Source: Escherichia coli
GTDB lineage: Bacteria > Pseudomonadota > Gammaproteobacteria > Enterobacterales > Enterobacteriaceae
DNA length: 64,000 nt
Reading direction: 5' to 3' (one strand)
Assembly: GCF_001677475.2 (NCBI RefSeq)
Contig: NZ_CP015229.1
Shown here: piece after piece, positions 55,813 to 56,514 of the stretch
Position numbering within the stretch: the stretch's first letter is position 1
How the letters are laid out: each line of letters opens with the position of its first letter
Notes under the pieces: model-generated
Databases searched by the model: none
Told to the model about the DNA's origin: nothing
What the model saw: only the letters and a program-made list of their open reading frames with translations
Position numbers and translations under genes: made by a program

Positions 55813-56514
55813 GTGAAGAAATGCGTAATAAAAATATACATTGCACCTCCTGAAAAAATAAATTTTTTATGCTATTGCGTATATTTGTATCTATTTCAAT
55901 GGAATGACAACGTGAATATTAATTACCCTGCTGAATATGAAATTGGAGATATCGTCTTTACATGTATAGGTGCTGCCTTATTTGGCCAAATATCAGCTGC
56001 ATCAAATTGCTGGAGTAATCACGTCGGGATCATTATCGGTCATAACGGTGAAGACTTCCTGGTTGCAGAAAGCCGGGTTCCCCTTTCAACTATCACCACG
56101 CTGTCTCGTTTTATTAAACGTTCTTCTAATCAACGCTATGCTATAAAGCGATTAGACGCCGGGCTTACAGAACAACAAAAACAACGAATTGTTGAACAGG
56201 TTCCCTCCCGGCTACGAAAACTTTACCACACCGGTTTTAAATACGAATCTTCGCGCCAGTTCTGTTCAAAATTTGTCTTTGATATTTATAAAGAGGCACT
56301 ATGTATTCCGGTGGGTGAAATAGAGACGTTTGGAGAACTGTTAAACAGCAATCCAAATGCAAAACTCACTTTCTGGAAATTCTGGTTCTTAGGTTCTATT
56401 CCGTGGGAGCGTAAAACCGTCACGCCAGCCAGTTTGTGGCATCATCCGGGTTTGGTGTTGATTCATGCGGAGGGAGTGGAAACGCCTCAGCCGGAACTGA
56501 CCGAGGCGGTATAA
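55813..56514 (+). CDS. yebB: Uncharacterised YiiX/DUF830-family protein YebB
   Basis: 233-aa ORF between ruvA and ruvC; true start may be internal (N-terminus Cys/Tyr-rich and AT-rich). Confidence 0.6.

Follow-up and report, generated by a model that had tools for sequence, protein, structure and literature searches.

The window, a 64,000-nucleotide stretch of Escherichia coli DNA, contains an open reading frame of 233 codons with a GTG start at 55813..56514 (+), located between ruvA (55026-55637, -) and ruvC (56516-57037, -) on the strand opposite ruvAB. The local gene order is znuB, ruvB, ruvA, yebB, ruvC, yebC, nudB, aspS, and the frame converges on ruvC, the two stop codons lying 1 nt apart (56514 vs 56516). 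The locus raises the questions of where the protein begins, what kind of protein it is, and whether its place among the ruv genes reflects a functional link. A first-pass annotation had named the frame yebB and described its odd N-terminus, its place between ruvAB and ruvC and its orientation; the open reading frame listing agrees on each of these points, and the name was found to be correct by megablast and by the RefSeq annotation of E. coli genomes. The feature is probably the known gene yebB read from a start too far upstream, encoding a protein with a YiiX-like fold and sitting beside ruv as an insertion that plays no part in recombination. The comparisons described below establish where yebB begins and ends, the family, fold and catalytic residues of its product, the purifying selection on the gene and its lineage-specific synteny.

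Positions 55600-56600 were recovered by megablast in 5,425 of 5,426 complete E. coli genomes, with the annotation 'yebB: YebB family permuted papain-like enzyme'. When the coordinates of two annotated genomes are carried over, the RefSeq gene, of 603 nt and 200 amino acids, falls at window positions 55912-56514 and starts with the GTG that codes V34 of the 233-aa frame. The length of 233 amino acids is a product of the rule that begins a frame at the first ATG, GTG or TTG after a stop, and the frame upstream of yebB is open by chance over 57 codons in this strain. The coding sequence of yebB accordingly extends over 55912..56514 (+), with a GTG start, 200 encoded residues and a TAA stop, on the evidence of RefSeq, homologue N-termini, PF05708, NF008547, dN/dS and INRI-seq. 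The 33-codon 'N-terminal extension' (55813..55911, +) is non-coding for YebB and consists of intergenic and regulatory DNA, into which the 5' end of yobI reaches from the opposite strand.

The true start of yebB is the GTG at 55912, and the first 33 codons of the 233-aa frame lie outside the gene. The suspicion that the Cys/Tyr-rich, AT-rich N-terminus is untranslated is supported by the database homologues, the syntenic loci, RefSeq and INRI-seq, and by the homologue alignment that the first-pass annotation had proposed as a check, in which the conserved start falls at V34 and the 233-aa frame is not conserved throughout. None of the 335 database homologues of the 233-aa query covered more than 87% of it; the 200 residues of YebB are 86% of 233. 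In an alignment of 21 sequences the normally called homologues all begin with Met at the V34 column, and the few longer gene calls have unrelated N-termini. The 16 loci with the ruvA-yebB-ruvC arrangement have a start codon at exactly this position (ATG in 9, GTG in 6, TTG in 1); ATG is found in one E. coli genome (L001) where the window has GTG, and K-12 has GTG. Outside the closest E. coli relatives, the syntenic loci carry in-frame stops 1-34 codons upstream of the start; in E. albertii and in Escherichia sp. E1V33 the upstream frame ends after 4 codons, and in a divergent 'E. coli' lineage after 11 (loci L004, L005 and L043). A weak Shine-Dalgarno core, GGA (55901..55903, +), is located 8 nt 5' of GTG 55912, and all 16 syntenic loci keep it, approximately 8-10 nt ahead of the start, within flanking sequence that has diverged.

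In published INRI-seq data K-12 position 1946251 has in-vitro initiation peaks of 274-350 across five replicates; it lies 275 nt from the ruvA start, equal to the distance of 55912 in the window, and so corresponds to 55912. The INRI-seq templates carry a short 5' UTR only, from which position -99 is absent, so that these peaks do not exclude the upstream GTG by themselves; it is the comparative data that exclude GTG 55813. The in-vivo Ribo-RET set cited with the INRI-seq data has no initiation peak at yebB, which suggests low expression of the gene under the conditions used, and yebB is not among the entries of the TRAINSPOTTER N-terminomics tables. The start is thus confirmed in vitro and by comparison. 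Residues 1-10 of YebB were modelled by AlphaFold at a pLDDT of 92, with no need of the extension.

The G+C content of the extension is 27.3%, compared with 43.8% in the remainder of yebB and 53-56% in ruvA, ruvB and ruvC. Its odd N-terminus is translated regulatory DNA that overlaps yobI on the opposite strand. The gene for this 21-aa small protein (55776..55841, -; RefSeq 'stress response small protein YobI') runs into the 233-aa frame, and its translation in the window matches the annotated copies in L001 and L002 residue for residue. The yobI Shine-Dalgarno sequence, a perfect AGGAGGT, occupies 55845-55851 (-), and the 'PP' in the translated extension is its complement. Genomic SELEX had identified a constitutive RpoD-binding region between yobI and yebB (PMC3946193). 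By pattern match to the promoters of that study, a predicted sigma-70 promoter of yebB (CTGAAA-17-TATTGC) was located at 55850..55878 (+) and a predicted yobI promoter (TTGTCA-15-TACAAA) at 55910-55884 (-), the -35 element of the latter abutting the yebB start codon; the predicted yebB -10 hexamer is TATTGC here and TATTAC in K-12. A consensus promoter scan flagged neither of the two predicted promoters. A known RNA element or structured leader was rejected, as an Rfam search of the spacer gave no match and the 245-nt leader folded no better than shuffled sequences (z -1.1). Also rejected was a descent of yobI from the 224-231-aa membrane-protein gene found at the same place in Salmonella and E. 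albertii, of which it would be a remnant: the two share no significant protein or DNA similarity past the first 70-89 nt of the ruvA-side spacer.

YebB belongs to the circularly permuted NlpC/P60 (YaeF/YiiX, Peptidase_C92) family. It matches PF05708 (Peptidase_C92, 'permuted papain-like amidase, YaeF/YiiX') with 155.5 bits (E 1.7e-45, profile positions 3-165 of 166; gathering threshold 27 bits) and the YebB equivalog NF008547 with 408.8 bits (E 3.6e-123, profile positions 2-204 of 205; curated cut-off 227 bits). The YiiX equivalog NF007458 was missed, at 80.4 bits against a cut-off of 216; judged by these profile scores, YebB is a paralogue of YiiX, not YiiX itself. YiiX (PDB 2if6) was the sole solved relative found by sequence (E 8.6e-18), and an exhaustive search for distant homologues over 1.84 billion cluster representatives gave 666 matches at E <= 0.001. 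From an alignment of 110 diverse sequences AlphaFold produced a model of YebB with a pLDDT of 95.7 and a pTM of 0.90; the pLDDT was 39 with only 16 close orthologues as input. The model has a papain-like alpha+beta fold that can be superposed on the solved members of the family, and the YiiX-like fold for which the first-pass annotation had suggested structure prediction is hereby confirmed.

The active site was located by alignment with YiiX. His37 (codon 56020..56022, +) aligns with the active-site His of YiiX, Cys118 (56263..56265, +), the catalytic nucleophile in the motif RQFCSKFV, with YiiX Cys128, and Tyr105 (56224..56226, +), the oxyanion or P1-carbonyl tyrosine, with YiiX Tyr115, which hydrogen-bonds the bound fatty acid in the YiiX structure (PMC3142127). 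The third triad residue is Glu53 (56068..56070, +), a Glu at this place being typical of the YaeF/YiiX family (PMC3142127). The four residues do not vary among 16 orthologues and reach at least 90% conservation in the 110 diverse homologues, and their order, with His and the polar residue before Cys, is that of a circular permutation and matches the description in PMC3142127. Across Escherichia the dN/dS of yebB is 0.02-0.09, which indicates strong purifying selection. YebB has no signal peptide, its catalytic domain beginning directly at the N-terminus; a signal-like hydrophobic N-terminal segment was seen in most of the 95 distant homologues inspected. From the absent signal peptide, the site of action of YebB is likely the cytoplasm or the inner leaflet. 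A clade-specific aromatic-rich segment (YebB residues 154-165) aligns with a charged KLKERYGKNIPLEE in YiiX and might, speculatively, serve as a membrane-interface or substrate lid.

The papers searched for yebB (b1862) yielded no functional study and no biochemical or genetic data for the protein, and its chemistry is read here from relatives at 16-28% identity. In the YiiX crystals a fatty acid occupies a hydrophobic S1 tunnel beside the catalytic Cys, and Xu et al. suggested that permuted NlpC/P60 enzymes act on lipids or lipidated peptides by cleaving or transferring their fatty-acyl groups (PMC3142127). The measured activities of permuted relatives fit this proposal: Tox-Act1 and TseH are phospholipases (PMC12994826), LRAT/PLAAT enzymes act via an acyl-thioester, and LnsA is required for lipoprotein N-acylation. 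In YebB, Glu53 would orient His37, which would activate Cys118. The activated Cys118 would attack a fatty-acyl amide or ester, bound in a putative hydrophobic pocket, at its carbonyl, which Tyr105 would stabilise; the acyl-thioester so formed would then be hydrolysed or handed to an acceptor. We infer that YebB may be an acyl-hydrolase or acyltransferase for lipids or lipidated substrates.

The gene neighbourhood of yebB is lineage-specific. Ruv genes were found within 5 kb of 17 of 82 yebB-family loci, all 17 of them in Enterobacteriaceae (Escherichia, Citrobacter, Pseudocitrobacter, Kluyvera, Superficieibacter, one Klebsiella and one Enterobacter), and two further Salmonella enterica contigs also have the ruv-linked arrangement. 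Copies at 65-74% identity in Proteus, Providencia, Budvicia, Leminorella and Pragia have unrelated, genus-specific neighbours, as do the second copies in some Citrobacter and in Salmonella diarizonae; for Proteus, Providencia and Budvicia no ruv gene lies within 5 kb. Rahnella and Xenorhabdus have the order yebC-ruvC-ruvA-ruvB with ruvC-ruvA gaps of 87 and 129 bp and no yebB between, and the ruvC-ruvA spacer is occupied by an unrelated 220-aa gene in K. oxytoca and by a NicO transporter in Dickeya, again with no yebB. Among yebB-bearing genomes the ruvA-yebB spacer measures 267-1,785 bp and contains different uncharacterised open reading frames. At 31-44%, the G+C content of the yobI-yebB segment is below that of its flanks (53-56%). 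Because of this low G+C content, the yebB-free spacers, the other cargo and the copies away from ruv, yebB is regarded as cargo inserted in the ruvC-ruvA spacer, which seems to accept insertions repeatedly. Insertion into a short ruvC-ruvA spacer in an ancestor of some Enterobacteriaceae would have placed yebB beside ruv.

When the open reading frames within 3.5 kb of the 82 yebB-family loci were clustered, no neighbour was shared across clades, and a conserved functional partner of yebB was therefore rejected. Pfam matches beside single copies were genus-specific (GntR-aminotransferase, VanW, Dyp peroxidase, Na/Pi cotransporter and one GDSL lipase). An origin from a defence island or phage is unsupported, as YebB had no PADLOC or PHROG match and neighbouring gap open reading frames gave only marginal matches (E 0.004-0.007).

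The shared intergenic region carries the LexA (SOS) box of the ruvAB promoter, CTGGATAGATATCCAG, at 55689..55704, which was found by a CTG-N10-CAG search, overlaps the ruvA -35 element and is also kept between ruvC and ruvA in Rahnella, Xenorhabdus, Klebsiella oxytoca and Dickeya. The transcription start sites (TSSs) of Kim et al. 2012, placed by exact identity of their printed 51-nt flanks to the window, stand back to back at 55669..55686: the ruvA site at 55669 (-) with 13 reads, and a weak + strand site at 55686 with 5 reads, which that table assigns to yebB with a 226-nt leader (PMC3415461). They are 17 bp apart and their -10 hexamers, TATGAT and TATCAT, overlap (55674-55680); in bacterial bidirectional promoters a spacing of 17-18 bp is typical and 18 bp the commonest (PMC12825309). 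The LexA box begins 3 nt past the + strand site and spans +4 to +19 of its transcript, so this transcript should be repressible by LexA. The same box lies approximately 145 bp upstream of the predicted gene-proximal yebB promoter. A network-inference study gives CsgD, LexA and MetR as computationally predicted candidate regulators of yebB. As yebB is on the + strand and ruvA, ruvB and ruvC on the - strand, yebB and ruv cannot be co-transcribed on one strand, and the link between them is positional. The possible tie to the neighbouring SOS genes raised by the first-pass annotation thus receives a mostly negative answer: the opposite strand and the lineage-specific arrangement speak against it, and the weak TSS by the LexA box would allow an incidental influence of LexA in E. 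coli.

These observations bear on several other accounts of the locus. That the full 233-aa frame, or a 209-aa form from TTG 55885, is translated into an N-terminally extended YebB is scarcely credible. The frame is open in the window and in K-12-like strains, and the lone experimentally mapped + strand TSS (55686, 5 reads) lies upstream of 55813, so that the extension codons could be in the mRNA; but no homologue aligns with the extension, the frame is stopped 4-11 codons upstream in E. albertii and two other Escherichia lineages, and no Shine-Dalgarno sequence precedes 55813. Compared with L003, moreover, pN is approximately 4 times as high in the extension as in the core, yobI and its Shine-Dalgarno sequence are encoded there on the opposite strand, and the 200-aa protein folds in full at a pLDDT of 95.7. 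A very unlikely account regards yebB as what is left of horizontally acquired DNA, decaying and now functionless. Its AT-rich composition, its GTG start with a weak Shine-Dalgarno sequence, the missing in-vivo initiation peak and a disruption by IS1 in at least one genome (H20) would be in keeping with decay, yet the dN/dS across Escherichia is low, the four catalytic residues are invariant and yebB is intact in approximately 99% of complete E. coli genomes.

Membership of yebB in the LexA/SOS regulon of E. coli, with co-induction alongside ruvAB through the + arm of a bidirectional ruvA promoter, is doubtful, though with a real chance of being right. The geometry of the + strand TSS, with its overlapping -10 hexamers and its nearness to the LexA box and the ruvA TSS, and the listing of LexA among the three candidate regulators by an expression-network study argue for it. 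Against it, the TSS was assigned to yebB merely as the next gene downstream, 226 nt away, and on 5 reads; LexA is one of three predicted regulators and not the first listed; a separate promoter is predicted close to yebB (PMC3946193); and a literature search found no data on LexA-dependent induction of yebB. In Salmonella, E. albertii, Citrobacter and Kluyvera an opposite-strand gene and 1.0-1.8 kb separate the LexA box from yebB, so that any coupling of LexA to yebB is not conserved and cannot be general. A bolder version, in which the + arm runs antisense through yobI to yebB, so that DNA damage would co-induce a cytoplasmic acyl hydrolase or transferase with RuvAB and interfere with yobI, is improbable. 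If this were true, the SOS response would have a so far unrecognised branch that modifies lipids or lipoproteins, brought about by foreign DNA inserted beside an SOS promoter. Participation of YebB with RuvABC in Holliday-junction processing or DNA repair has next to no probability. It is suggested by the position between ruvA and ruvC and by a Pfam match to RecA_dep_nuc (E 0.16, 12.6 bits vs a cut-off of 26.9), which was dismissed as noise far below threshold, and it is contradicted by the strand opposite ruv, by a fold and active site of an acyl-hydrolase family that acts on lipids, by close relatives located away from ruv genes and by the many Enterobacterales that have ruvC-ruvA without yebB.

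The 233-aa frame is an ordinary, already known case of longest-frame over-extension of a known gene: the longest reading adds 33 codons of regulatory DNA to yebB, in a stretch where yobI is also encoded, and the current RefSeq coordinates are right. The practical value of this result is small. YebB has a clear catalytic fold, and the family-level acyl inference together with the absent signal peptide can guide the choice of assay. The comparative picture is mildly useful for work on SOS promoters and small proteins, as it reveals a recurrent insertion point and an SOS operator beside newcomer genes; knowledge of RuvABC is unchanged.

Among known systems, the gene is that of the YebB family (NF008547 / PRK11470; K-12 b1862), in the same place between ruvA and ruvC. 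The protein is 99-100% identical to annotated E. coli YebB (100% for L001, 99% for the K-12-like L002), with no substantive difference from K-12 yebB, which shares the GTG start. YiiX is 26-28% identical to YebB and differs in its signal peptide, absent from YebB, and in the aromatic 154-165 segment carried by YebB. The LRAT/PLAAT (HRASLS) phospholipase A-acyltransferases, TseH and Tox-Act1 are 11-17% identical to YebB and belong to different clades; the type VI secretion (T6SS) toxins TseH and Tox-Act1 are secreted and paired with immunity genes, whereas yebB stands without conflict-system neighbours. With the LexA-regulated ruvAB operon yebB has in common the intergenic region in which the ruvAB promoter and SOS box lie; it differs in lying on the opposite strand, 207 bp from the box, with a predicted promoter of its own, and in an association with ruvAB that is confined to some Enterobacteriaceae.

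The ruvA transcription start lies at position 55669 (- strand), and a weak + strand start has been mapped 17 bp away, at 55686 (PMC3415461). The -10 hexamers of the two starts overlap, and the segment 55669-55706 is a putative bidirectional promoter whose + arm begins 3 nt before the LexA (SOS) box of ruvAB. A transcript of the + arm from 55686 would run antisense through the small gene yobI. Read on the - (ruv) strand, the SOS box forms a palindrome, GCTGGATATCTATCCAGC (55688-55705), with a T-run behind it, and the scan scored this as an intrinsic terminator. The same hairpin and T-run stand immediately past the ruvC stop codon in the ruvC-ruvA spacers of Rahnella (L086:4023-4109) and Xenorhabdus (L088:4023-4151). 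A single element may terminate yebC-ruvC, act as the operator for LexA and hold the -35 region of ruvA.

The pattern CTG-N10-CAG occurs 29 times in the whole window, compared with 13 ± 3.6 in shuffles. A second match near ruvA, CTGAAAAATGGCACAG at 55742-55757, has the ruvA promoter on one side and yobI on the other; it agrees poorly with the LexA consensus and is not part of the block that other genera share. At 40425-40440, CTGTGATTTTATACAG appears to be a true SOS box and probably belongs to yebG.

The small gene yobI (55776-55841, - strand) encodes a 21-aa protein and is preceded by a perfect Shine-Dalgarno sequence, AGGAGGT, at 55845-55851 on the same strand. It overlaps, on the opposite strand, codons 1-10 of the 233-aa frame (55813-56514, + strand) that the first-pass annotation had read as yebB, an over-extension of yebB by 33 codons. 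Since Escherichia sp. MOD1-EC7003 has ATA in place of the yobI start codon and the yobI region has diverged in another compared locus (L005), yobI looks specific to E. coli proper.

In relatives, the interval between ruvA and yebB is filled by two unrelated protein families of approximately 220-231 aa each, c42 (L004:4006-4692, L043:3368-4054, L083:3100-3774 and L007:4102-4797) and c26 (L006:3905-4591, L011:3551-4246 and L085:4313-4975). Their hosts are Salmonella, E. albertii, Citrobacter, Superficieibacter, Kluyvera and K. oxytoca. The proteins of both families have hydrophobic, membrane-like N-terminal segments and gave no significant match in Pfam, NCBIfam, PADLOC or PHROG; the only PADLOC matches of one c26 member were marginal, to Csx1 (E approximately 0.006). 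L043 and L010 carry further uncharacterized ORFs, with lengths of 274-349 aa and 331 aa. The spacer between ruvC and ruvA looks like a site of repeated insertion.

Among 5,426 complete E. coli genomes, the best identity to the 1 kb segment 55600-56600 was 98.7%, with none above 99%, and approximately 35 genomes lacked a single match spanning at least 80% of the query. One complete genome (H20, NZ_OZ547461.1) carries an IS1 inserted in yebB. Between the window and a K-12-like strain, yebB has a high dS of 0.12 at a protein identity of 99%; silent-site polymorphism at this locus is unusually high.

yebB and ruvC are convergent, with 1 nt between their stop codons (56512-56518). The sole + strand terminator-like hairpin past yebB (56653-56686) is located approximately 140 nt inside ruvC, so that yebB transcripts would be antisense to the ruvC 3' end.

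Elsewhere in the window, Rfam matches at gathering score were the SraC/RyeA and SdsR/RyeB sRNA pair (32758-32902, +/- strands) and a cspA-type thermoregulator 5' UTR (16810-17270, - strand).

Superficieibacter electus has a gene for a GDSL-family lipase/acylhydrolase (L011:5563-6444) immediately 3' of yebB, before ruvC, the one instance of a lipid-enzyme neighbor. Amphritea species carry two yebB-family genes in tandem (L072:4312-5534 and L078:4335-5486). The distant members of the family come from marine gammaproteobacteria, Verrucomicrobiota and methanotrophs, and most of them bear signal peptides, whereas these are absent from enterobacterial YebB.
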